Positions 1-9,115 of a stretch of 64,000 nt of DNA are shown piece after piece (the stretch's first letter is position 1; each line of letters begins with the position of its first letter). The position numbers and the translations under genes are program-made. Location: positions 3,978-67,977 of the forward strand of contig CAWKJD010000021.1 in the NCBI GenBank assembly GCA_963849945.1, written 5' to 3'. Under the pieces are notes generated by a model. That model did not search any database, had not been told where the DNA came from, and was given only the letters and a program-made list of their open reading frames with translations. Origin of the DNA: an uncultured Bacteroidales bacterium (GTDB lineage Bacteria > Bacteroidota > Bacteroidia > Bacteroidales > VadinHA17).

Positions 1-254
1 GTCGCATCTTTCCCTCTTGCTTCTAACCGTTCTGCCTTTGAGTCAAGTCTCTCTCCTCTTCTTTCAGCTCGTTTTACAATTCTCTCTGCTTTCTTTTCAT
101 TTTTATCATCAAACCATCTCCCGTCAGGGTCAATATATCTTATAGGATTATTCGCAGCATAGCAGTATGGCGAATATGAGTGGTCTTTTTCAGCACTTGG
201 GTCAATCACGTGCCACCTTCCAATCTGGGGATCATAGAACCGTGCTCCGTAATC
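1..254 (-). pseudogene. orphan Rhs C-terminal fragment (core end [14 protein letters not shown] plus start of the toxin tip), running off the left edge
   Basis: nt 1-254 align base-for-base with 10185-10438 inside the intact rhs gene. The first 221 nt are identical, followed by 3 synonymous mismatches. Upstream in-frame codons read [14 protein letters not shown], with no start codon. Confidence 0.8.
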
Positions 255-389
255 CTGTTGATCTACTCATATAAAACAACTCATCCAAAAGCTGCAGGAA
301 CTCCAAAAACAGGTGTTATTCAAAGAACGATCTAATATTTAAAGATACCTTTTTTCTTTTAATTGAGATTTTCAGTTAAAAAGAAAAAG

Positions 390-881
390 CTATTCTTCAT
401 CCACTATCGGGATTATTGATGCTAATTCCTTCTCGATGTCAAGACCATATGATACGGCTATCTTTGCGATATGGATTCCAAAGACACCTCTGAGTTCACC
501 TAATCCGCTGATAAATATCCAGGAACTGATATTGTCAAAAGGAGGCCTCAGGTATCTCATTTCATGTTTATTGTCTTGAGTCTTATCCAGGAACTTTCTG
601 CAAGCGGCTCTTAATGCTCTCAGGTTTGTTTCCAGTTCAGATCCGCTAGCTAGAGTGCCGATTTCATCAGTCAGATATCTTCTTATCTCAATGATAGATT
701 CAACGCAGTGCATCGGCATTTCCATATCGTATGGCGAGTATAATACTCTCCGGTCTTCCAGGAAAGATATTATTCTCTTGGCGACTTTTCTCTCGGATTC
801 AGGAGGATTCCAGGATACTCCGAAAAAAGGAACACTGATTCCGGTGATTCTTTTTGATACTTCTTTGAAGTTCATTTTCAT
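390..881 (-). CDS. hypothetical protein (164 aa from MKMNFKEV)
   Basis: ORF 390..995. The first 38 codons are Cys/Lys-rich and look non-coding, so the Met at 881 is preferred. No family recognised. Confidence 0.5.
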   Translation of the reverse strand: MKMNFKEVSKRITGISVPFFGVSWNPPESERKVAKRIISFLEDRRVLYSPYDMEMPMHCVESIIEIRRYLTDEIGTLASGSELETNLRALRAACRKFLDKTQDNKHEMRYLRPPFDNISSWIFISGLGELRGVFGIHIAKIAVSYGLDIEKELASIIPIVDEE

Positions 882-1100
882 GGGATTAATGAATGAGGAT
901 ACTAAAGTTAGTAAAAATACAGGATCCCATCGCTCGCCATCCCTTCTGCATTTATTTTTGTCATGGTTTTTGTGGCTGATGCACTTGCAGCACATGCCGG
1001 CTTTTGTTTTTGTGTTGGTTGATTTTTAAGTAGTAAAAACAAAACCGGCAAGAGCTGCGCCGCCCCTTTCCGGATACAAAAACTCACGCCAAAAATAAAT

Positions 1101-1211
1101 GCCCAAAGCTATAGTTACATAATGCAAGTTATACGCAGCCTGTCTTTCAGTGGTATTGATTTTTGTGTTTCGGCTGCCTATAACTGGCATTATGTACTTC
1201 GGGCTAAAGCC
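1101..1211. repeat. palindromic unit A: two inverted copies of a GGCTGCCTATAA-N-GCATTATGTA core
   Basis: The tail of 1101-1140 (tacataatgcaagttatacgcagcc) matches the reverse complement of 1172-1196 at 23 of 25 positions. The spacer is 31 nt. Confidence 0.7.
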
Positions 1212-1305
1212 AAATAGCCGCACTCCCTCCCCGCCTGACCCGGTAGCCAAAACCTCAAAAAAACAAAGCAAAGGTATGCAAGCTCCGCACTGGCCGACCC
1301 GCAGT

Positions 1306-1396
1306 AAAAAAGCAAGGCCAAGACAAGTCCCGTTAAATTTTTTTATTTAATTTTTATTTTCAATGGTAAAAATTTTAACGGGAGCCTTGCTTTTTT
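1306..1396. terminator. long hairpin flanked by A6/T6 runs; possible bidirectional terminator downstream of ORF 1460..1741
   Basis: AAAAAAGCAAGGC (1306-1318) pairs with GCCTTGCTTTTTT (1384-1396). An inner stem CCCGTTAAA / TTTAACGGG encloses an AT-rich loop. Confidence 0.45.
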
Positions 1397-1459
1397 CCCT
1401 CGCTTGCATGTCGCGAGAGCTTTCTTTTTTTCCGGTTTTTTCTTTGTGGAAATGGTTAA

Positions 1460-1741
1460 CTAAATCGTTTCGATTAATTTAATCGTCCATTTACCCGGTA
1501 AATTCTTGGTTACCCATTCAGTACATTTTTGATAAACACCTTCTTCAGAATGGTCCATGAACTGTTCCAGTTTCATATCCACTTGGATTTCATTTCCCTC
1601 TGACCAGTTTCCACTCCTTATATAGTACAGTACTCCTCCGAAGTAGTAATCGTTTGTATGTGATGACACATACACTTTAAAAAGTCCGTTCTGGTGGTCT
1701 AAAATATAGACCTTTGTCCAGTTGATGTAATTTTTTTTCAT
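1460..1741 (-). CDS. hypothetical protein (93 aa)
   Basis: Clean ATG ORF followed by the hairpin at 1306-1396. No family recognised. Confidence 0.45.
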   Translation of the reverse strand: MKKNYINWTKVYILDHQNGLFKVYVSSHTNDYYFGGVLYYIRSGNWSEGNEIQVDMKLEQFMDHSEEGVYQKCTEWVTKNLPGKWTIKLIETI

Positions 1742-1862
1742 GTTGTAAAAATTTTAATTGTTTATAATTATTATACTCATAAATAGTGAGGAGTTTCAAA
1801 AAATCGCATTTTTCGGAAAATATTTTTTGATGCAGTAATTTAGACAAAACTTTACACTATGG

Positions 1863-2038
1863 CTTAACTTTGGCTTAGATACAGACCTAGCGAGCGCGAG
1901 GGGAAGTGTCAAGGTTTTTGGGATATTTTTTTGATTCAATTAAAAAAAAAAAACAGCTATCAAAAAAATATTCCAAAATTCATTTTAACCTTGACTGTGC
2001 GAGGGCGGAAGCTACCTTTACTAAGCCAAAGTTTTAAG
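1863..2038. repeat. ~176-bp imperfect palindrome with an A12 tract near its centre
   Basis: Three nested arm pairs: cttaactttggcttag (1863-1878) with ctaagccaaagttttaag (2021-2038); gtcaaggtt (1908-1916) with aaccttgac (1987-1995); ttttgggatattttttt (1916-1932) with aaaaaaatattccaaaa (1962-1978). Confidence 0.75.
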
Positions 2039-2282
2039 ACTGCAAGATTGATATCACCTGCATAGGCGAACTCCAGGAATGACCAGGATAGTCATTTTTG
2101 ATTATAAGATTATGAGAAGGAGTATTGATAAAATTATGATAATGATGATACTACGATTTGTAGGGTTAATACATTTCATTTTAATAAACCAAAAAACTCA
2201 AAATTAAATTCTTCATCTTTTTTCATATACCGTTTTTATATATTATAGTCAGTTATTGTCCCAAAGTTTCCACTTTCTATTG

Positions 2283-2347
2283 AAAAAGTTGTGGATTAAT
2301 AATCCCAAAAATGTGCTTATTAAGCACAAAATGTGGTTTATTAATGC
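2283..2347. promoter_or_regulatory. three iteron-like direct repeats (AAAATGTGNNTTATTAA) at 20-22 bp spacing
   Basis: TGTGG at 2290, TGTGC at 2312 and TGTGG at 2332. The middle unit is the perfect palindrome GTGCTTATTAAGCAC. Confidence 0.5.
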
Positions 2348-2411
2348 AAGGTATGATACGGGATGCTTCGAAAAAAGGACAACCCTCTCTCAGGCTGGCA
2401 GCGTCAGGCTG

Positions 2412-2516
2412 AGCGGCTATTTAACATAATGACTCATTATAGGGCAGCTTTGGTTTTTGAGCGTTGGATTTGAGCGGCTGTGCCTATAATGCCGCATTAT
2501 GTTAATATAGCTTGGG
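2412..2516. repeat. palindromic unit B, a second copy of unit A in the same orientation
   Basis: 2412-2447 resembles 1101-1140 and 2475-2516 resembles 1172-1211 (ggctgtgcctataatgccgcattatgt versus ggctgcctataactggcattatgt). Confidence 0.6.
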
Positions 2517-2676
2517 GTAATTTTTTCGGGCATGTCTTTTTGCCTGACGGGTTAGCGCAGCTCTTTGCTTTTGGCTTTTTACCGCTAAAATCAATTAAAA
2601 GAAAAAACAAAAGCAATGTGCTGCAAGCGTGCTGAGCAAAAAGCATGACGGAAAAAATTACAGAAGGGGGCGGCGC

Positions 2677-2739
2677 GGGGAGCAGCTCCCAAAAATGCGG
2701 GAGCTAATGGAAGATTTTTGGGAGCTGCGTGGGACTAAG
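2677..2739. promoter_or_regulatory. three GGGAGC-headed direct repeats at exact 21-bp spacing
   Basis: GGGAGC at about 2677, 2698 and 2719. The first forms the palindrome GGGAGCAGCTCCC. The set abuts the 3' end of the ORF6N gene. Coordinates may be off by 1 nt. Confidence 0.45.
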
Positions 2740-3283
2740 GTTTGTCTGTATCGGAGTGTTTAAAACCTTTTACCTTCACGGGTTTATATGGTTCATGCTT
2801 CTCGATCATTTCATCAAGATAACTAAAGACAAGCTCTATGTTCTTGTCCTGGTTTACAAGCTTTTTCTTTATCTCTTCTATTTCAAGTCGCACACTTAAA
2901 TTATCCATCAGGATTTCCCGGACTTTGGTAAAGACACGCATGATCTGGATATTTACCGTTATTGCTCTTTCACTATTTAAAACACCTGATAACATAGCCA
3001 CACCCTGCTCAGTAAAAGCATATGGTAGTTTACGACGGCCTCCCCAACTTGATGCTCCAATCTGGAATATCAAGATATCGAACTCCTCCTTTGTGAGTTG
3101 GAACATAAAGTCTTCCGGGAAACGTCCTAAATTACGTTTTACCTGTTCATTTAATCTGCGAGTCTCAACTCCGTAAAGCTCTGCCAGATCTTCATCCAGC
3201 ATCACCTTTTTATCTCTTACCAAGTAGATCTTATTGGTTATTATCTCGTCCGGTATTGCAAGCTTGCTGGTCCCTTTTGCCAT
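2735..3283 (-). CDS. ORF6N (KilA-N-like) domain protein
   Basis: IYLVRDKKVMLDEDLAELYGVETRRLNEQVKRNLGRFPEDFMFQLTKEE ... GGRRKLPYAFTEQGVAMLSGVLNSERAI matches the ORF6N pattern common in Bacteroidota mobile DNA. Confidence 0.85.
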   Translation of the reverse strand: MAKGTSKLAIPDEIITNKIYLVRDKKVMLDEDLAELYGVETRRLNEQVKRNLGRFPEDFMFQLTKEEFDILIFQIGASSWGGRRKLPYAFTEQGVAMLSGVLNSERAITVNIQIMRVFTKVREILMDNLSVRLEIEEIKKKLVNQDKNIELVFSYLDEMIEKHEPYKPVKVKGFKHSDTDKP

Positions 3284-3373
3284 GTAGTAAGTGTTTGACG
3301 TTTGTAAATTTACTTATTTAATCTTGATGTCGCAATTTGCGATATCAAGTTTGTATGTGTCTGATTTTGTGAT

Positions 3374-4375
3374 TTATCCCAGCGGGTGACATTTATTTAT
3401 TGATTCCTGCAGATCTTCCAGGTAGTCGACCTGGTATCTTTCAGTGGAGCTGATCCACTTATGCCCGGACATGTACTGAACGGTCCTTAGATCATATCTC
3501 TTTAACCATCCGGTGACCACACTCTGGCGGATATGACTGCAGCTGCGGACCTTCGGATTGATCTGCTTTAATGCTTTTACCAGATGCATCAGGCTGTTCT
3601 TGATATCTTCAGATCCGTTCATGCTGATTAGTAACTGTCTGCTCAGCTTTTCCAGATCCGGATTCTCGGCTTTTCTTCCGGAAGTGATATTTTTCTTTTT
3701 AACTGATTCAAGTATTGCCGGTCTGGTTTTTAAAAGATAATCCTGCAGCTCTAATACCTGATGAGCTTCAAGCTTCAACGTGCGGCCTCCTTCATGACGA
3801 CTCCCGGGGATCCGGATCTTTCCTTCTCTTAAATGTATATCAGCAGGTTCCAGCCTTCGAAGATCATCCGTTGATAATCCCTGGCTCGTGAGCAGTGAAA
3901 GGATCACTTTGTTCCTGGCTGTTCTAAGATCAGTCACCTGGTAACTTTCATAAAGCTTTTGCAACTCTCCTTCGCTCATCATACCCGTTGGGATCCTCCG
4001 GGACCGGGTTCTTAAGTAAAGTCTATCGGCCGGGTTCTTTTCTACCCTGCCACGCTTTTGCAGGTAGCTGTAATACTTTCTTACTGCTGCCACCTTGCGG
4101 TTGATCAGCTTCGAAGAGTCACCCGCTGTCTTACACCGGGTGATATAATCATACATATCTGTTCGTTTTACATGGGTGTCAGATAAATACCTTTCTCTCA
4201 GATAAAATAAAAAAGCAGAGATGTAATTAATAAAAGCTTTTATGGTTGCCGGCGAGTATTCTTCTGTCCCTAACTCCGACAAATTGGCCAGAAGTTTTTT
4301 TCCAAACAGATCTTTCTGCTTTTGATACTTACTCCTGTTCATAAACGATATGGGTGTAAATCTGTGTTGTCTCAA
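3374..4375 (-). CDS. tyrosine recombinase / integrase
   Basis: Catalytic pattern R (DDLRRLEP), HxxR (HIRQSVV) and H...Y (GHKWISSTERY). Overlaps the upstream recombinase gene by up to 47 nt; the start may be a later Met. Confidence 0.85.
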   Translation of the reverse strand: MRQHRFTPISFMNRSKYQKQKDLFGKKLLANLSELGTEEYSPATIKAFINYISAFLFYLRERYLSDTHVKRTDMYDYITRCKTAGDSSKLINRKVAAVRKYYSYLQKRGRVEKNPADRLYLRTRSRRIPTGMMSEGELQKLYESYQVTDLRTARNKVILSLLTSQGLSTDDLRRLEPADIHLREGKIRIPGSRHEGGRTLKLEAHQVLELQDYLLKTRPAILESVKKKNITSGRKAENPDLEKLSRQLLISMNGSEDIKNSLMHLVKALKQINPKVRSCSHIRQSVVTGWLKRYDLRTVQYMSGHKWISSTERYQVDYLEDLQESINKCHPLG

Positions 4376-5225
4376 GGCTGCTGTGACCTAAAAAGTGTTT
4401 TATCTTCTCAGGTGATAACCCCGACTGCAGAAGGTGAGTTGCTATCGAGTGTCTTAGAGTGTGAAGGCTGCCCGGACGATCTATCAGAGCTTTTTCCTTA
4501 AGCGCCTTGAGCCTGTTCACCATGGCCTCCTCACATAGCCGGTTTCCTCTCTGGCTTAAAAAAAATGCCTGCTCATTTCCTTTTGCCAGCATCGGCCGGG
4601 CAAAGTGCAGGTAATTATAAAGATCTTCTTTTACTGCCCCTGTGAAAGGAACAAAGCGTTGTTTATAGTTCTTGCCCTTTCTAACGTACAAAAGACCCTT
4701 TTCAAAGTTTATATCTTCCTGGTCAAGACTTACTCCTTCACTTCTTCTTAGTCCACAGCCGTAATACACCCCAAGCATTGCCTTGTCTCTCACTCCAAGA
4801 AGATCTCCCTCACATGAGCGGTAAAGAGCTTTTATTTCTGATTTTGTAAATACGTTTACACTCTTTCGGCTAGTACCTGTGACAGCGATATCAGTCTCAA
4901 AGCCTTCATGGCCGTTTTCTCTTAAGTACCTTGACAGTTTTCTTAGAGATGTGAGATGTGTTCTCAGGTAGTTCCTGCTAAGCCTTCCACCTTTTACCCG
5001 GTTCTCTCTTGAGCTGAGATAATAAAAGTAGTCGCTGATGGTTCCGATTGTTAAATTATTAACACTAAGTATCTTATGACGTTCGAGCCAGTAAAAGAAC
5101 TCTCTTGCCTTAACCGGTGCATACCTCACGGTGCTTCGCTCGAAGTTTAACATTTCGAGCCACTCCCGGAAAGATTTTTCAAGAGCTGTAAATTCCTTGG
5201 ATTCTATCCTGATCTCGTGCATCAT
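4329..5225 (-). CDS. tyrosine recombinase, XerC/XerD-like
   Basis: GLRRSE, LHTLRHSIATHLL and LGHSSLETTQIYTH motifs. Confidence 0.9.
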   Translation of the reverse strand: MMHEIRIESKEFTALEKSFREWLEMLNFERSTVRYAPVKAREFFYWLERHKILSVNNLTIGTISDYFYYLSSRENRVKGGRLSRNYLRTHLTSLRKLSRYLRENGHEGFETDIAVTGTSRKSVNVFTKSEIKALYRSCEGDLLGVRDKAMLGVYYGCGLRRSEGVSLDQEDINFEKGLLYVRKGKNYKQRFVPFTGAVKEDLYNYLHFARPMLAKGNEQAFFLSQRGNRLCEEAMVNRLKALKEKALIDRPGSLHTLRHSIATHLLQSGLSPEKIKHFLGHSSLETTQIYTHIVYEQE

Positions 5226-5342
5226 TTTAGGGGGGTCTTGCTCTCTCCCGGTTATACATGTTATACTGTTATACTTGATTGTAACTTTTTTATTTTAACT
5301 GAGTTACGTACTGCGGGGAGCGATGTTATACTTCTGTTATAC

Positions 5343-8049
5343 TTATGTTAAACTTAAGCTTTTCTCTGTTATACTTACACTTTTTGATGTTATACTTAAC
5401 TTTTTTTCTTCCTTTTCTCTCAGTCCTTTAAGTATATCATCAAGGATATCGATTCCGGATTTAAGCTTATCGTATTCATCCCAGGCTGAGATCTCATACT
5501 CATAACCTGTCTTGCGGTTTCCACCAATCATCTGGAGATAACCCCGCTGCTCCAGTTCCCTCAGGTACCTGTTTGCCTTCATGGGGTGCATCCTGAAGTG
5601 TTCCCTGATATGTTTGGCATAAAGACTTCCCGGATTTCTGTTATTTCCTGCAAGCTCTTTCAGCCCTTCAAAGAACTGACGGACCTGTCCGCTTAGCTCA
5701 TCGGACTTTCTCAGAAGACTATCCTTTATCAGGTAGTTGGCCCACTCGATATCCTGCAGAGAGGATTCTATAAAAAGGATCCCGTTTTTGTTCTTTTGCC
5801 ACTTTCTTTGCCTTTGGTGATAAAACGTGATGATCTCTATGAGCCTGAGGTAATGCATGTTTGTCCGGAGCTTTTTAAAAACGCACTGAGGGATATCAAG
5901 CAGGGTGGCATAAGGATTGATAACTTTAACCGGACGCAGTAGCCTCTGGGCGTTCCTCAGGAGCTCACGCCAGGCGTTTTGTTCAGCATCATTAATAAGT
6001 CCTGCCTGTTGCCTTCGCTGGTAGTGCATGACCTGATCAGCGTGCTGCGGAGTCTCATCCACGTGTAGCAGGAACGAGCGGTTGGCATTATCCTCGTAGA
6101 TCTGCGTGTTTGTCGTGGCTCCTGACACGCATACCGGTCCTTCAACAACAAGCACCCTCTGGACGTTATTTCCCTTGATATCTTTATCCGTGGTTAGCTT
6201 GGTGATTGATTGCTTACTCATGAACTCCCGAAGCGGTAAAAACGCCTGGTAAACACCCTCGAGATCCTCGATCAGCAGGACCTTATGTTTCCAGAAGTCT
6301 TTTTCAGAGTAGTACAATGTATTTTCTGTAAGGCTGGTTATGGTTCTTAGACTTTCCTGCGGGAGGCACTCGCTGATCCTGGTCTGCAGGTAAGTTTTTC
6401 CACTGCCCGATTTGCCATAGATTATTGCATGAAGCGGTTCATCAAAAAGACGGCTCAGGTAAAGAAAAAAAAGCAGCAGACCGTTTTGCTCTTCCCCGAC
6501 AAGCCCGGTCTTTTCTATTGCCTTCATGGTATTTTTAACAAGATCCTGGGATGTTAAGAACTCACTCGCCCGGCTCTCTTCTTCCTGGCTCATGTGGTAG
6601 CTCTTTGGCTGAAGTGTTTTTCTTTCTCTCTCGATCTCCGAGAGCCGGTACTCTTCGAGCTGCAATTGAAGTCTCCGGATAACGGTTTTTAGCAATGTGG
6701 TGCTGATCTCAAGTTCCTCGGTAGCTCCTTTGATATATCTCTGCAGCTGACCATTACTGTAAAGGTTGACATCATCCTGGTAATACCTGCTCATTCCTTC
6801 AGTTTGTACCAGAAGATTGATCTTTAGCCTGTGTATGTTTTCTCTCTCAAGTCCTCCCCAGATTGTAAATAGCAGTTCCCCTTCACGGTAAGAGATCCTA
6901 TGGGGATTCTTTGTATTAAATTGAGTTTCCGTGTATGGTGTTTCGCTTTGTGATACCTGATCCGGGCTGTCATCATTTTTTATTTTATCTGAAGCATTTA
7001 CAGGTTTTCTGGTTCGGAGCAGGTGAGAAAGGATCTCAGCGTCATGACCCTGTACAAGACTGTTTATATCTTCATCATCCGGGGTTTCTACATTTGTAAT
7101 AAGGATATCCGGTTTAATGGCTCTAATCTTCTCGCTGATCTTTGTCACTGCTTCCCGGCCTCCTTCGTCTCCATCAAAAAACAGGATCACTTCATTAAGT
7201 TCCACAAGGGTTCTGATAGCTTCTGCATGTTCCGGAGTAAATCCGTTGGTTCCAAAAAGAGACATCATACCAAACTCATTTGTGATTGATTCCTGCTGCC
7301 TTAAGGTCTCGCAGTCGATGATACATTCCGTCAGGATCAGTTTCCTGGTTGCCGGTTCTGGATATCCGGGATAGATCCCCTGGTGGTTGCCATTCAGGTA
7401 AAAATGTTTCCCGGTTCCGTTCACGCTGATAGATCTTCCGTAGAGATCAATGACCTGGCCTTTTTCATTCTTTGTAAAGAACAGAACAACATTTTTAAAG
7501 GTCGGAACAATGGTATCCTGTCTCGATCGCCTGAGTATTCCAAGAGAGATGGCGCTCTCCTGAAGTTTCACATTCCATCCCTTGCCAAGGTCCGGACCAA
7601 GGTAACCGGCCTGGGTTTTATCCGGGTCAAGGTTTCGGGAGAGTAGATACTCCCTTGCTGCAGTAGTTCTCTTAAAGCTGCCACGGCTCTCCTGCATAAG
7701 CTTACCCATCACGGCAAGCCTTGGGAGCAGTTCCTTATCGTTTTCAGATTCATTAGTTTGTATCATGGCTCTTTGGATTATTCCTGCCGATGGATCTATA
7801 ATACTCTTTGCTTTTAATATAGCCTCATGTTTTCCTCTCTTGTCGTACCTTTCGATAAACTCTATCACATCCCCTGCAACTCCACAACCAAAGCAGTTAA
7901 ATGTGTTTGTCTCCGGGTAGATCTTCAGGCTGGGATCCTTGTCATCGTGGAAAGGACATTTCAGGAAGTGGTGCCGGTCGGGTTTCAGATCGTAATGACT
8001 TCAGAACTGTTTCTATTGATAATCGCTCCTTTATCTCCCGGATCTCCAT
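5343..8049 (-). CDS. DNA primase (CHC2 zinc finger + Toprim) fused to a P-loop helicase-like domain; N-terminus interrupted by a 1-nt frame change
   Basis: The ORF track starts at a GTG at 7868, but the frame stays open to 8000 and encodes CPFHDDKDPSLKIYPETNTFNCFGCGVAGD. Toprim motifs: LTECIIDCETL and FFDGDEGG. Walker A: GKSGSGKT. Walker B: VLLIED. The ATG with MEIREIKERLSIETVLK at 8049 is in another frame. Confidence 0.8.
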
Positions 8050-8167
8050 TGTTAATAAAATTTTATTTAAACATATCTGTTTACAAACATAACATATTAG
8101 TTCATTCAAAACAAAACCCTTTTATTAGACTTATTAACAACTATAAACTTATATGCTGCTAAAACCT

Positions 8168-8175
8168 TATATTTG
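8168..8175 (+). promoter_or_regulatory. candidate Bacteroidota -7 promoter box TATATTTG for the XRE gene
   Basis: Exact TAnnTTTG match 48 nt upstream of the ATG at 8223, in the divergent region between the primase and XRE genes. Confidence 0.35.
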
Positions 8176-8222
8176 CTGAACATTTCAGTTTGTTTATAAC
8201 TTTTTACAGAACCATTGAGCTT

Positions 8223-8573
8223 ATGAACGATTTCGCAGAAAATCTTAAAAAATGCAGGACCCAGAAGGGGATTTCCCAGGATGAGATAGCAAAGAAGATT
8301 AGTATACACCCTGTCCAGTTCTCAAGGTATGAACGTGGACAGAGCGCACCATCTATTGAAGTGGTACAGAAGATTGCAGATGCTCTTGAGGTTTCTATTG
8401 ACCAGCTCGTTTATGGAGATCAGGATAACAAGGCAGAACAATCTATCTCAGACAGGGAACTGCTATCTATGTTTCAGAAAATACAGCTGCTTAACGAAAG
8501 GCAGAAAGAGACAGTGAAGGATTTCCTTTCTTCATACATCCTAAAGTCAGATCTTAAACAAAAACTGGCATAG
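8223..8573 (+). CDS. XRE-family helix-turn-helix regulator
   Basis: LKKCRTQKGISQDEIAKKISIHPVQFSRYERGQSAPSIEVVQKIADALEVSIDQLV. The Met at 8223 is preferred over the ORF start at 8190. Confidence 0.85.
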   Translation: MNDFAENLKKCRTQKGISQDEIAKKISIHPVQFSRYERGQSAPSIEVVQKIADALEVSIDQLVYGDQDNKAEQSISDRELLSMFQKIQLLNERQKETVKDFLSSYILKSDLKQKLA

Positions 8574-8623
8574 GGCTTCCTGATCAGGATATTCTGAGGC
8601 ACTGTTTTTTCTGATTACACTCC

Positions 8624-9040
8624 ATGCAGGAAATTGAACCTAAAATACTTCCACTGGTACAGGCACTTAACTCTACAGGATTGGTCAGTACATTTTCAAG
8701 CTGTGAGGGGCATTTTGATGAAATTAGCAGATTCAATGATCATAACAAAGCTGATGTAAGGTTTGATCCTGAGGATAATATCTCAGATTACGACATTGAG
8801 AAGTTCATTTCTTATATTATTACCCGGTTTAGCAACTTACATAGCTTTTCTCCTGTAATAGCAACTGCTCACAAATTATATGGCCCAACAGGTCCGGAGG
8901 AAAATAAGGGAATTGACTTTGTTTATGTACTTCAATTAATACCCTTTGATCAGGGAGATTCTTCAATCAATAAAAGACAGTATATCGATAAGGCGATACT
9001 GGATGTATCTGCGATTGTAAAAGAGTATCACCATGCTTGA
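8624..9040 (+). CDS. hypothetical protein (138 aa)
   Basis: ATG ORF downstream of the XRE gene. No family recognised. Confidence 0.5.
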   Translation: MQEIEPKILPLVQALNSTGLVSTFSSCEGHFDEISRFNDHNKADVRFDPEDNISDYDIEKFISYIITRFSNLHSFSPVIATAHKLYGPTGPEENKGIDFVYVLQLIPFDQGDSSINKRQYIDKAILDVSAIVKEYHHA

Positions 9041-9050
9041 GGCTCAATAT

Positions 9051-9075
9051 AAAACAAAACCCCAGTCGCCCAGGG
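9051..9075 (-). terminator. GNRA-loop hairpin plus U-tract downstream of Rhs locus 1
   Basis: The minus strand reads CCCTGG-GCGA-CTGGGG-TTTTGTTTT. The same module recurs at 30516-30540. Confidence 0.5.
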
Positions 9076-9115
9076 TTCTGTTTATCTTTACAGGTTATTG
9101 TTTCTTTTTTTTGTT

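Follow-up and report, generated by a model that had tools for sequence, protein, structure and literature searches.

A mirror-symmetric non-coding region with a putative control function and dif-mimicking hairpins in an apparently undescribed element located between Rhs toxin tips of Bacteroidia

The 1.7-kb gap between the recombinase genes and the first cassette in a 64-kb stretch of DNA from a Bacteroidales bacterium (the window, i.e. the whole stretch analysed) is a conserved non-coding control region of an element with a primase-helicase and two Xer-type recombinases. The carrier element is widespread, apparently undescribed so far, and located between Rhs toxin tips in Bacteroidia. Two modules of ~300 nt, 935-1223 (L-type) and 2411-2674 (R-type), are inverted copies of each other, ~75% alike, and each is made up of one long Hairpin A and one Hairpin B. 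They flank a central palindrome, so that the region reads Hairpin A, Hairpin B, palindrome, Hairpin B, Hairpin A (Table 1). The hairpins, which resemble the dif site of the host chromosome, probably work in folded single-stranded form. We tentatively interpret the block, from its sequence, as replication origin plus folded-strand Xer sites of an integrated element, giving this interpretation slightly less than an even chance of being correct.

Table 1. Positions of genes, hairpins and repeats in the part of the window occupied by the element
Feature	Position	Strand	Remarks
Rhs core-end stub and start of orphan toxin tip	1-254	-	right end of a 1617-bp direct repeat
Inverted pair of motif TTCAATTAAAAGAAAAAAG	346-396		promoter-like block, conserved
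DUF6650 gene	390-995	-	first cassette gene past the non-coding region; GC 40.9%
Hairpin A, L-type (distal)	935-1111	-	minus strand folds
Hairpin B, L-type	1102-1223	-	closed by GGCTAT/ATAGCT
TACCTTTG, TAnnTTTG match	1269-1276	-	53 nt upstream of Hairpin B, folding strand
Hairpin H	1306-1396		bidirectional-terminator-like, A6-GCAAGGC…GCCTTGC-T6
Conserved spacer piece	1418-1457	-	found in G003, G031, L050 and L052
orf93	1460-1741	-	small protein family; optional insertion 1458-1842 here
Central palindrome	1863-2038		outer arms AACTTTGGCTTAG, middle arms GTCAAGGT
Optional AT-rich segment	2043-2406		holds AAAATGTG repeats and inverted repeat 2292-2348
Hairpin B, R-type (recombinase-proximal)	2411-2517	+	plus strand folds
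Hairpin A, R-type	2508-2674	+	outer helix GTAATTTTTTC/GAAAAAATTAC
Three GGGAGC heads	2678-2728		between Hairpin A and ORF6N stop codon
ORF6N-domain protein gene	2735-3283	-	optional in family
IntB, Xer-family tyrosine recombinase	3374-4375	-	NCBIfam best: XerD, XerC, under equivalog cut-offs
IntA, second Xer-family tyrosine recombinase	4329-5225	-	
DnaG/Toprim primase gene, C-terminal Walker A (P-loop) motif	5343-7868	-	
XRE-type HTH gene	8190-8573	+	divergent from primase gene; family-conserved

An IntB profile search found at least 559 relatives in metagenome contigs, and 80 loci fetched in this way all (80/80) share the gene order HTH/primase, IntA, IntB, (ORF6N), non-coding region, Rhs tip. 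In full, the XRE-HTH gene and the primase-helicase gene are followed by IntA, IntB, the facultative ORF6N gene, the non-coding region and an Rhs core-end stub with toxin tip and immunity. From IntB to the Rhs core-end stub, the succession of one module (A, B), the centre and the other module (B, A) recurs in no fewer than 14 loci, which represent several families and orders of Bacteroidia. Both recombinases align over their full length to XerC/XerD models, and the integron-integrase model TIGR02249 (NCBIfam) gave 97.9 and 41.1 bits for IntA/IntB against a cut-off of 265. The gene combining DnaG/Toprim and P-loop domains is read here as a putative primase-helicase. The element of the window is 8.6 kb long and sits in an rhs locus on contig C21. 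Such elements stand in series behind rhs genes, bringing spare toxin tips, with six units in tandem in one genome (G309). Within this six-unit array, homology breaks off at two places, the stop codon of IntB and the Rhs stub. No break coincides with Hairpin B and no recombination event there was caught; Hairpin B was accordingly rejected as cassette or unit junction. Neither a rolling-circle Rep nor a relaxase, either of which could be a source of single strands, is encoded in the element, and relaxase and mating genes are absent from its 8.6 kb as well as from the 80 related loci. IMG/VR held no IntB relatives and PLSDB plasmids gave a single distant match (28.7% identity) and no DNA match, for which reasons a phage or plasmid origin was rejected. 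We also rejected a genome-wide repeat or MITE, as the region is unique in the genome except for its own inverted copy. The 64-kb window contains no tRNA or tmRNA genes.

The repeat structures of the region are far beyond chance and are conserved, with compensatory changes, across other genera, families and orders. The inverted repeat of ~930-1235 and ~2400-2680 shows a mean column identity of 77% over its first ~200 columns and 73% over 185 nt by BLAST. The G/C-rich patches that the original prediction had seen in opposite orientation are real, and they are only a fraction of this longer repeat, which it had missed. On the folding strand Hairpin B always precedes Hairpin A, the latter traced with an nhmmer profile. 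Matches to a model of Hairpin B (R1) lie solely downstream of IntB, with the minus-strand match first and the plus-strand match second; this order holds for 9 metagenome loci as well as for G000, G003, G261, L041, G309-X and G545. About half of the family loci having the long gap give no R1 match, indicating that an origin built of these modules could not be universal. L and R are paralogous modules that have diverged, being told apart by the length of their centres (6 nt versus 7 nt) and by an insert of 15 nt, and their identities are retained in G000, G003 and L041. The segment between them ranges from 450 to 2060 nt and is variable in content; optional inserts fall here, away from the core sites, and may include a gene such as orf93. 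Relatives of this 93-aa protein comprise 84 cluster representatives at E<=1e-3, nearly all of ~90 aa, indicating that the one clean small ORF of the block is a real gene; the insertion that carries it (1458-1842) is missing from G003, L050 and L052. Ten other short ORFs gave zero Pfam matches at E<=0.1, and hidden coding sequence was rejected. The original prediction had named two findings that would speak against it, unconserved repeats or spacing in homologues and coding sequence concealed in the block, and neither was encountered.

The stem of Hairpin B recreates an Xer/dif core. Its two copies correspond to the palindromic units noted before at 1101-1211 and 2412-2516, which are genuine, the arms 1116-1140/1172-1196 being 92% and 2421-2443/2483-2505 87% complementary. 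In the L-type the arms are two inverted dif-like cores of 11-6-11 arrangement (~1112-1140 and 1172-1200), and the folded stem has a 1x1 mismatch at its centre; in the R-type the cores span ~2417-2447 and 2478-2508, and the centre is a 3x3 bubble. The core TATAA-N6/7-TTATG occurs four times in the region and six times in the 64-kb window, where 0.6 copies are expected and 0/100 shuffles reach six; dif-like core sites are confined to the non-coding region. The GGCTGCCTATAA-N-GCATTATGT core, which adjoins the two Xer-family recombinase genes, is by sequence resemblance an Xer/dif-type recombinase core. Outer arm TTATGTTAAATAG and inner CCTATAAT of the R-type hairpin are identical to the genome's probable dif, a match of 8+13 bases. 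This site, the sole other close core match in the genome, is TTTGCCTATAA-TTAATA-TTATGTTAAAT at C3:174900, ~5-10 kb away from where the cumulative GC skew of the contig peaks, and is the probable chromosomal dif of the host. The XerD arm is 11/11 identical to that of E. coli dif as printed (PMC3025954).

In 54/55 copies of Hairpin B the folded core has an imperfect centre, most often a 2-nt bulge (20 copies), followed by 1x1 (13), 2x2 (11) and 3x3 (4) mismatches, and the flanking stem is 95-98% paired. Copies of the 5/7 class have the canonical spacing of a duplex site in one arm only. Among 39 distinct metagenome copies 94.7% of positions are paired and 13/23 pairs have changed on both sides, values reached by 0/500 shuffles. 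Hairpin A is conserved in the same manner. In the L-type copy it consists of the nested helices GCATTTATTTTTG/CAAAAATAAATGC, CATGGTTTTTGT/ACAAAAAC, GCAGC/GCTGC and GCCGG…CCGGC; the outer helix of the R-type copy pairs as in the L copy with an entirely different sequence, and across copies the outermost helix has at least seven unrelated sequences, every one of which pairs. Pair counts on a MAFFT alignment (A6) gave 92.5% paired cells, with 23/52 pairs changed on both sides; 0/500 shuffles were as high and slid controls reached 47-54%. Compensatory changes, which the original prediction had proposed to look for in homologous elements as a sign of RNA, are strong in both hairpins.

Hairpins A and B are kept via compensatory change, whereas the central palindrome is kept as sequence. 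This three-tier palindrome with its A12 run at the centre is as originally described, the arms 1866-1878/2021-2033 and 1916-1935/1959-1978 being complementary at 100% and 95%, respectively. Across 11 loci the sequence of its outer and middle arms never changes and covariation is absent, suggesting DNA to which proteins bind. Conservation extends to the pyrimidine-rich inner loops; the innermost stem occurs in two versions, which covary, and the AT-rich tip bears a TTTTTnTTTTAAyTGA motif. Hairpin H, the 91-nt hairpin of the original prediction, was likewise borne out by matching outer arms (13/13), inner arms of 16 nt at 94% and a DNA-fold z of ~-6 on both strands. Its inner stem shows compensatory change, reading CCCGTTAAA in the window, CCCGGTAAA in L050 and CGCCGATA in G003.

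Both short-repeat sets proposed as iterons are present. Exact copies of AAAATGTG at 2308 and 2328 are contained in a 28-nt inverted repeat (2292-2319/2321-2348) and are accompanied by a less exact one at 2284-2293, and GGGAGC lies at 2678, 2699 and 2720 with exact 21-bp spacing as part of a perfect 15-bp inverted repeat (2682-2696/2714-2728). The GGGAGC block is identical in L042 and absent from G003, and the optional segment with the AAAATGTG repeats is found in L052 and L058 and missing from G003 and L050, so that the iterons are not general features of the family. This lack of conservation counts against the origin and folded-site interpretation, as do the array breakpoints away from Hairpin B, the long-gap loci without an R1 match and the absence of a gene that could supply single strands. 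The conserved elements of the region are inverted, not direct.

Transition-type imperfections in the stems are nearly always G.T on one strand, with G.T to A.C counts of 35:2 in Hairpin A and 41:6 in Hairpin B and 30:1 in a symmetric wobble test. Such one-sided wobble pairing suggests that one specific strand folds, and the favoured strands of the two modules point outward from the centre. With RNA parameters the minimum free energy favours the same strand in 18/18 copies, the difference being 20.9 +/- 6.2 kcal/mol. Under DNA parameters neither strand of the G000 hairpins folds markedly better than the other. The one-sided G.T might partly reflect strand-biased C->T mutation instead of selection.

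On the folding strand, TACCTTTG matches TAnnTTTG, the -7 box of Bacteroidetes, and its position is the same in G003, L041, L050 and L052. Many L-type modules have such a box 48-106 nt upstream on this strand, and within 250 nt upstream it occurs in 22/52 copies on the folding strand versus 6/52 on the other. Its presence upstream of L-type modules, like that of a terminator-like hairpin ahead of it in the G000 clade, suits an RNA leader equally well and in this respect speaks against the origin and folded-site interpretation. The joint between Hairpins B and A, TAGCTTTG, was rejected as a -7 box, since TTT is retained in only ~40% of copies and TAGCTTG takes its place about as often.

Modules mirrored about an AT-centred palindrome of conserved sequence, next to the primase-helicase gene, fit an origin, one of the readings of the original prediction. 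In the origin and folded-site interpretation the primase-helicase would open the DNA at the central palindrome, where conserved inverted sites surround the AT-rich tip, and forks departing from the centre would expose the folding strand of each module as lagging-strand template. Folded Hairpin B could then offer IntA/IntB or host XerCD a single dif-like duplex with a bulged centre, i.e. a single-strand recombination substrate comparable to CTXphi attP(+) or integron attC, which might be used for integration or excision of the element or for multimer resolution. Hairpin A may have an accessory role or serve in priming (ssi-like). Toxin tips themselves would be exchanged farther along, at the Rhs stub and not at Hairpin B.

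Alternatively, both modules may be transcribed outward from the centre, with the hairpins acting as RNA helices that control expression or stability, the L-type as highly folded leader or small RNA before the toxin-tip cassettes and the R-type as an antisense RNA against the 3' end of ORF6N/IntB. The strong covariation, in which the many G.U pairs keep to one strand, the order of terminator-like Hairpin H, TACCTTTG and module in the G000 clade, the excess of TAnnTTTG on the folding strand and the shared direction of L-type module and cassettes would all agree with structured RNAs, which we nevertheless consider rather unlikely. An RNA has no reason to mimic both arms of the host dif, properly spaced, beside Xer-type recombinase genes; fewer than half of the copies have the -7 box, which is missing above all from the R-type; the B/A joint is no consistent substitute for it; no U-tract terminator follows Hairpin A; and the cassettes have their own promoter block downstream of the module. 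Long near-perfect stems are, moreover, more typical of DNA hairpin sites, and the covariance-model search that had been suggested (Rfam 15, E<=1, positions 1-9000) yielded no family, only chance-level microRNA and SprX matches (E 0.27-0.71). It is improbable, too, that the arms bind recombinases or other proteins solely as double strands and owe their palindromy to template-switch correction between close inverted repeats, with no folded form in use. Classic duplex sites for proteins are indeed seen in the dif-like cores and in the central palindrome with its invariant sequence, and the equal folding of both G000 strands under DNA parameters is compatible with this, but template-switch correction would remove the imperfection that nearly every core centre retains, and 20 copies have one arm spaced by 5 nt, non-canonical for a duplex site. 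In addition, the 30:1 to 17:1 one-sided wobble requires an extra assumption, and the helices of Hairpin A have no recognisable conserved binding sequence and are still paired through complete sequence turnover.

That the block is a recombination substrate is upheld as far as the Xer/dif-type core beside two Xer-family recombinase genes is concerned; the inversion and oriT variants of the original prediction are not supported. Inverted dif-like sites around a variable centre with room for a gene would suit a segment of ~1.2 kb flipped or removed by IntA/IntB as a switch or as a dif-module-like cassette, similar to the pdif modules of Acinetobacter. Given that the centre points the same way relative to IntB in 6/6 homologous loci examined, inversion of 1212-2411 finds no support, and with L and R modules that keep their separate identities and inserts located between the modules rather than at the core sites we grant this alternative only a slim chance. 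An oriT or Frpo-like single-strand promoters active after conjugative entry are the least probable reading; strand-specific hairpins are compatible with such transfer signals, as is the recurrence of the promoter-block motif TTCAATTAAAAGAAAAAAG at the hairpin tips. An oriT is not supported because the element has no relaxase gene, its relatives were not found on PLSDB plasmids, inspection by eye placed no Frpo-like -33/-7 pair within a stem, and the modules lie on opposite strands, whereas the transferred strand is a single one.

Several known systems share parts of this arrangement. Integron attC sites are conserved in the form of imperfect hairpins and not in sequence, with unpaired or extrahelical central bases and strand preference, and IntI belongs to the Xer branch. 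The element resembles integrons in imperfect hairpins that are likewise conserved in form and have unpaired central bases and a strand preference, in its Xer-branch recombinase and in the adjacent array of small accessory genes. It differs from them in that IntA/IntB are far below the integron-integrase model (97.9 vs 265 bits), that its hairpins are restricted to the stretch from IntB to the first cassette and do not mark the 3' end of each cassette, that its cassette breakpoints are at the Rhs stub, and that its arm sequence is dif-like. The oriV of RSF1010/IncQ plasmids combines iterons, AT-rich DNA, an own primase and the ssiA/ssiB hairpins (~40 nt) on opposite strands. Similarly, the element encodes a primase and has two hairpin signals on opposite strands by AT-rich DNA and short repeats, a likeness of geometry only; its primase is a DnaG/Toprim protein fused to a P-loop domain, its modules have ~300 nt instead of ~40 nt, and its GGGAGC x3 (21 bp) and AAAATGTG repeats are absent from close relatives. 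Acinetobacter pdif modules are 11-6-11 dif-like sites in alternating orientation around variable gene content. The 11-6-11 sites of the element also alternate in orientation and flank a variable segment, yet they are hairpin pairs within larger conserved modules, chromosomal and beside own Xer-type genes, and, in contrast to pdif modules, we found no evidence of module movement.

In the available text on CTXphi, two inverted dif-like sites of attP(+) fold on one strand into an Xer-type hairpin with imperfect centre (PMC3091885, PMC6744903). Hairpin B has the same design as CTXphi attP(+) and further integrative elements that exploit Xer (IMEX), being a pair of inverted dif-like sites foldable into one site with imperfect centre. 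Whereas CTXphi-type IMEX have no recombinase of their own and use host XerCD, the element encodes IntA/IntB beside its sites, and it resides in an rhs locus and not at the chromosomal dif (probably on contig C3). Unlike CTXphi it is no filamentous phage and has no rolling-circle Rep, and it bears a pair of such hairpins, one per strand, with another long hairpin attached to each. The rAID-1 and polyimmunity loci of Bacteroidales, as described in the available parts of three papers, consist of an XerD-like recombinase gene, a conserved non-coding stretch and then toxin-immunity-type genes (10.1101/471110; PMC12247911; PMC3482391), and rAID-1 is defined there by a XerD-like recombinase on the 5' side that shares 44% identity or more with BF9343_RS08045 (10.1101/471110). 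Judged by the layout given in those parts, the element is similar, with a recombinase gene, a conserved non-coding stretch, co-directional lower-GC toxin-immunity-type genes and repeated intergenic motifs, and it has the two or more co-directional downstream genes of GC <=41% by which rAID-1 is recognised. As far as the same parts go, it differs in having two recombinase genes plus primase-helicase and XRE genes, in the tandem arrangement of its units and in its cargo of Rhs core-end stubs with toxin tips rather than immunity arrays only. Those parts describe motifs, not hairpins or dif mimicry (10.1101/471110; PMC12247911; PMC3482391).

How arrays of orphan toxin tips and immunity genes are built in Bacteroidales is under study, and rAID biogenesis is called 'an area of active research' in the available text of one paper (PMC12247911). 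The region offers candidate DNA sites beside recombinases, namely a dif-mimicking hairpin with conserved central imperfection, a sequence-conserved palindrome and a fixed mirror layout. A bolder proposal, possible though doubtful, is that the element represents a third natural system of single-strand site-specific recombination, in Bacteroidia, beside integrons and CTX-type phages, in which a dedicated Xer-family pair would act on bulged-centre, dif-mimicking hairpins within a primase-helicase element that replicates itself and piles up Rhs toxin tips behind rhs genes, and which may be ancestor or engine of rAID-type arrays. If the folded-strand interpretation is true, hairpin-substrate tyrosine recombination also occurs in a phylum and a type of element new to it; should the modules be RNAs, recombinase genes are associated with large structured RNAs of a class that is new and widespread. 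The family is abundant either way, its metagenome relatives coming from several orders of one class.

On the cassette side, the promoter-like block stands upstream of every Rhs stub examined, and in the window the TTCAATTAAAAGAAAAAAG pair is followed on the minus strand by TATCTTTA and then ACGTTCTTTGAA. The true start of the DUF6650 gene is probably Met39/41, near 881. The orphan tip has a GC content of 39.9% and the immunity-like gene one of 28.2%, compared with 43-45% for the recombinase and primase genes. The second copy of the 1617-bp direct repeat lies at 8822-10438.

Every repeat that the original prediction had listed in this block was located in the window sequence. The arms of the two palindromic units are 25 nt (92% complementary) and 23 nt (87%) long, the hairpin termed H and the central palindrome match their description, GGGAGC occurs at 2678, 2699 and 2720, i.e. 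at exact 21-bp spacing and within a perfect 15-bp inverted repeat, and AAAATGTG is found at 2308 and 2328, the third copy being looser. The G/C-rich patches described for the two ends are present as well, but they are part of a long imperfect inverted repeat that had been missed, in which ~930-1235 pairs with ~2400-2680, so that the whole block is mirror-symmetric. Within the 3.1-Mb genome the block is single-copy.

BLAST detected homologous pieces in 18 of 61 relatives, and a sample of 401 genomes from across the order contained 14 with such pieces. Alignment and folding of 15-21 copies resolved each arm into a ~300-nt module of two hairpins: Hairpin A, ~170 nt with nested helices, and Hairpin B, ~110 nt with a GGCTAT/ATAGCT closing helix, which corresponds to the predicted palindromic unit. 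Both optional inserts between the modules are missing in one relative (G003) and in locus L050, and locus L052 is without the orf93 insert and has the AT-rich one. The 93-aa ORF, orf93 (1460-1741), proved to be a real gene of an uncharacterised family of ~90-aa proteins with 84 cluster representatives; one relative carries a fused N-terminal HTH domain, and within the mirror region orf93 is an optional insert. A Pfam search with the other short ORFs of the block gave no match, and no tRNA gene was found in the block.

Features of the block and its flank
Feature	Position	Location
Promoter-like block	window 255-400; loci L050-L124	ahead of each Rhs stub
Hairpin H, terminator-like	1306-1396	between modules
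Conserved spacer	1418-1457	between modules
Optional insert holding orf93	1458-1842	between modules
Central palindrome	1863-2038	between modules
Optional insert, AT-rich, with AAAATGTG repeats	2043-2406	between modules

Examination of homologous copies for compensatory changes revealed covariation in Hairpins A and B (related sequences are not independent, so that the counts overstate significance). Among 14 copies of Hairpin A standard pairs occupy 92.5% of the cells and both sides have changed in 23 of 52 pairs, values matched by 0 of 500 shuffles; sliding the partners by 1-3 columns as a control lowered pairing to 47-54%. Its outermost helix exists as at least seven unrelated sequences, each pairing with its own partner (e.g. 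GCATTTATTTTTG, GTAATTTTTTC, GCCCGGTTTGCCTG and GTTGTTTTTACCG). For Hairpin B, metagenome loci outside model building supplied 39 distinct copies, which were 94.7% paired, with both sides changed in 13 of 23 pairs (0 of 500 shuffles), in an alignment that was fitted to the model and hence leans toward structure; slid controls gave only 24-44%. The outer and middle arms of the central palindrome, in contrast, are kept as sequence, being invariant without covariation in 11 loci, and the innermost stem alone occurs in two covarying versions. This invariance makes the palindrome look like a duplex protein-binding site.

When both strands were folded with RNA parameters, the G/T-rich one was favoured by 20.9 ± 6.2 kcal/mol in 18 of 18 copies. 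In a symmetric test, confined to single mismatches inside helices common to both strands, G·T was counted 30 times on the favoured strand versus once on the other; the same counts for the curated helices were 35:2 (Hairpin A) and 41:6 (Hairpin B). The folding strand is the minus strand in the left module, read from 1223 to 935, and the plus strand in the right module, read from 2411 to 2674, so both modules point away from the centre, and B always precedes A along the folding strand. We consider single-strand folding of the modules likely rather than proven, as strand-biased C-to-T mutation could add to the asymmetry.

Each arm of Hairpin B reads as an 11-6/7-11 core, GCTGCCTATAA-CTGGCA-TTATGTACTTC in the left and CTGCCCTATAA-TGAGTCA-TTATGTTAAAT in the right module; Escherichia coli dif is GGTGCGCATAA-TGTATA-TTATGTTAAAT (PMC3025954). 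A genome-wide pattern search returned one more close match, TTTGCCTATAA-TTAATA-TTATGTTAAAT, at position 174900 of contig C3, where a 28-bp dif-like site outside the window (AATTTGCCTATAATTAATATTATGTTAAATAGA) is located. As this site lies ~5-10 kb from the point on the contig where cumulative GC skew peaks, sequence and GC skew together suggest that it is probably the chromosomal dif of the source Bacteroidales genome. The right module has CCTATAAT and TTATGTTAAATAG in common with it, and the centre alone differs. Across 80 related loci, dif-like cores as inverted pairs are confined to the gap downstream of IntB, the sole other recurrent core match being a coincidental coding motif inside IntA. 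In folded Hairpin B the two arms form one dif-like duplex with an imperfect central region in 54 of 55 distinct copies (2-nt bulge, 20; 1x1, 13; 2x2, 11; 3x3, 4) and a flanking stem that is 95-98% paired; read as a duplex site, one arm of the copies with a bulge would be spaced by a non-canonical 5 nt. Judged from these motifs, Hairpin B is a dif mimic. Integron attC sites are palindromes that keep an imperfect centre while the remainder is corrected. Hairpin B is like both attC and CTXphi attP(+) in that the imperfect centre is conserved and the rest of the palindrome corrected; the attP(+) features are those summarised in PMC3091885. By analogy, the block would work like these two sites, and it is a member of neither class because, unlike CTXphi, its element has its own recombinases and the site is not at dif, and, unlike in integrons, IntA and IntB are not IntI and the hairpins lie away from the cassette junctions.

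The minus-strand neighbours of the block are ORF6N, the two tyrosine recombinase genes and a Toprim/DnaG-like primase whose C-terminal part has a P-loop motif; an XRE gene is divergent. IntA and IntB align end to end to XerC and XerD models with scores under the equivalog cut-offs. On the opposite flank, a DUF6650 gene is accompanied by a promoter-like block and by an Rhs core-end stub that carries an orphan toxin tip with an immunity-like gene. A 1617-bp direct repeat (99.75% identical) links the orphan tip to the 3' end of an intact rhs gene (9644-13126); since its left copy is interrupted by IS21, the repeat may once have reached further, and so, perhaps, may a second element unit. The IS21-type element (istA, 521 aa; istB, 248 aa) occupies 155-2471 of locus L023 on contig C21 of the source genome (G000), just upstream of the window, in the left copy of a 138-aa gene.

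An IntB profile search yielded 80 metagenome loci, the best 80 of at least 559 relatives, and 80 of 80 have the order (Rhs tip) - HTH - primase - IntA - IntB - (ORF6N) - gap - Rhs core-end motif YDPxxGRWxxxDP. In one genome, G309, six such units are arranged head to tail, and their toxin tips all differ. In this array (G309:C1:5068774-5115748; loci L043 and L046-L048) the Rhs stub, toxin tip and immunity pair that follow each primase-IntA-IntB unit differ from one unit to the next; near-identical non-coding regions are nevertheless found in units with differing IntB genes and cargo, a pattern suggestive of gene conversion or of repeated swapping of tips at the stub. Conserved across subfamilies, TTCAATTAAAAGAAAAAAG, TAnnTTT(G/A) and ACGTTCTTTGAA, in this order, stand ahead of every orphan Rhs stub and likely constitute a private cassette promoter for the orphan tips. 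The A/T motif of this block recurs at the Hairpin A tip and the palindrome centre; it is also found between the primase and IntA genes (5287-5303).

The non-coding block is best read as a control region that belongs to an integrated element, self-replicating in the past or still so, by which Rhs toxin tips are shuttled; this reading is based on the observed mirror layout, strand-specific covarying hairpins, dif mimicry with a bulged centre, sequence-conserved central palindrome and fixed place between the Xer-type pair and the cargo. The primase-helicase would open the DNA at the centre, an origin function suggested by geometry alone, and the folding strands would be the lagging-strand templates of forks departing from it. 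Folded Hairpin B might then serve as single-strand substrate of IntA/IntB or host XerCD in integration, excision or multimer resolution, and Hairpin A as an accessory or priming structure. Toxin-tip exchange appears to occur elsewhere than at Hairpin B, as the inter-unit homology in the G309 array begins at the stop codon of IntB, extends as far as the stub and has its precise breakpoint at GGTATGATTACGG (encoding WYDYG). The rAID-1/polyimmunity loci have in common with the element an XerD-like recombinase, a conserved downstream non-coding stretch and lower-GC cargo, to which the element adds a second recombinase, the primase-helicase, Rhs stubs and tandem units; the available papers on these loci describe intergenic motifs, and hairpins or a dif-like site do not appear in them.

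The strongest rival to a control region is that the modules are structured RNA. In the clade of the source genome the folding strand has a terminator-like hairpin and a TACCTTTG box ahead of the L-type (left) module, and in 22 of 52 copies a TAnnTTTG box lies at most 250 nt upstream, versus 6 of 52 on the other strand; the T/G-richness of the folding strand, however, is alone enough to favour this box, which is missing from most R-type (right) copies, and an RNA leaves the dif mimicry unexplained. For the large RNA considered in the original prediction, the block gave no match to an Rfam family at E<=1. Sites acting only as duplex would account neither for the imperfect centre that persists nor for the one-sided wobble. 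Inversion of the centre, also proposed originally, is not supported because the CCATAGTGTAAAG palindrome flank has the same orientation relative to IntB in six of six loci examined, and the suggested oriT and single-strand promoters have no relaxase context; such a reading could not be confirmed.

A search of the 80 loci with R1, the model of Hairpin B, gave 41 sites in 32 loci, 41 of 41 downstream of IntB; about half of the long gaps of the family give no R1 match. The module pair is arranged in the same mirror fashion as in the window in 9 of the 80 loci, and at least 14 loci have it when G000, G003, G261, L041, G309-X and G545 are added. Three more carriers, all from other orders of the same class, were found among 150 further genomes across the phylum. 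IntB has no relatives in IMG/VR and one distant match only (28.7% identity) in PLSDB, where the module DNA gave no match. Two short contigs with these modules and an 80% identical IntB (L040, DIWC01000029.1; L041, DIWC01000060.1) are filed under the 'Peptococcaceae bacterium UBA6116' MAG and are probably mis-binned Bacteroidales contigs. A lone A+B module is located at the distal end of a short array of orphan Rhs tips (L132, contig G103:C11, 2759-5778), adjoining a PIN-domain-like (VapC-like) gene and ordinary chromosomal genes, with no recombinase gene seen in the 12 kb fetched. A different context for the A+B module is a ~5-kb repeat in G214, a complete genome without primase homologue, where two 97% identical copies (L130, 6151-11131; L131, 6163-11141) start ~100 nt ahead of a full module and encode a DUF6943 protein and a protein of 420 aa that has no Pfam match.
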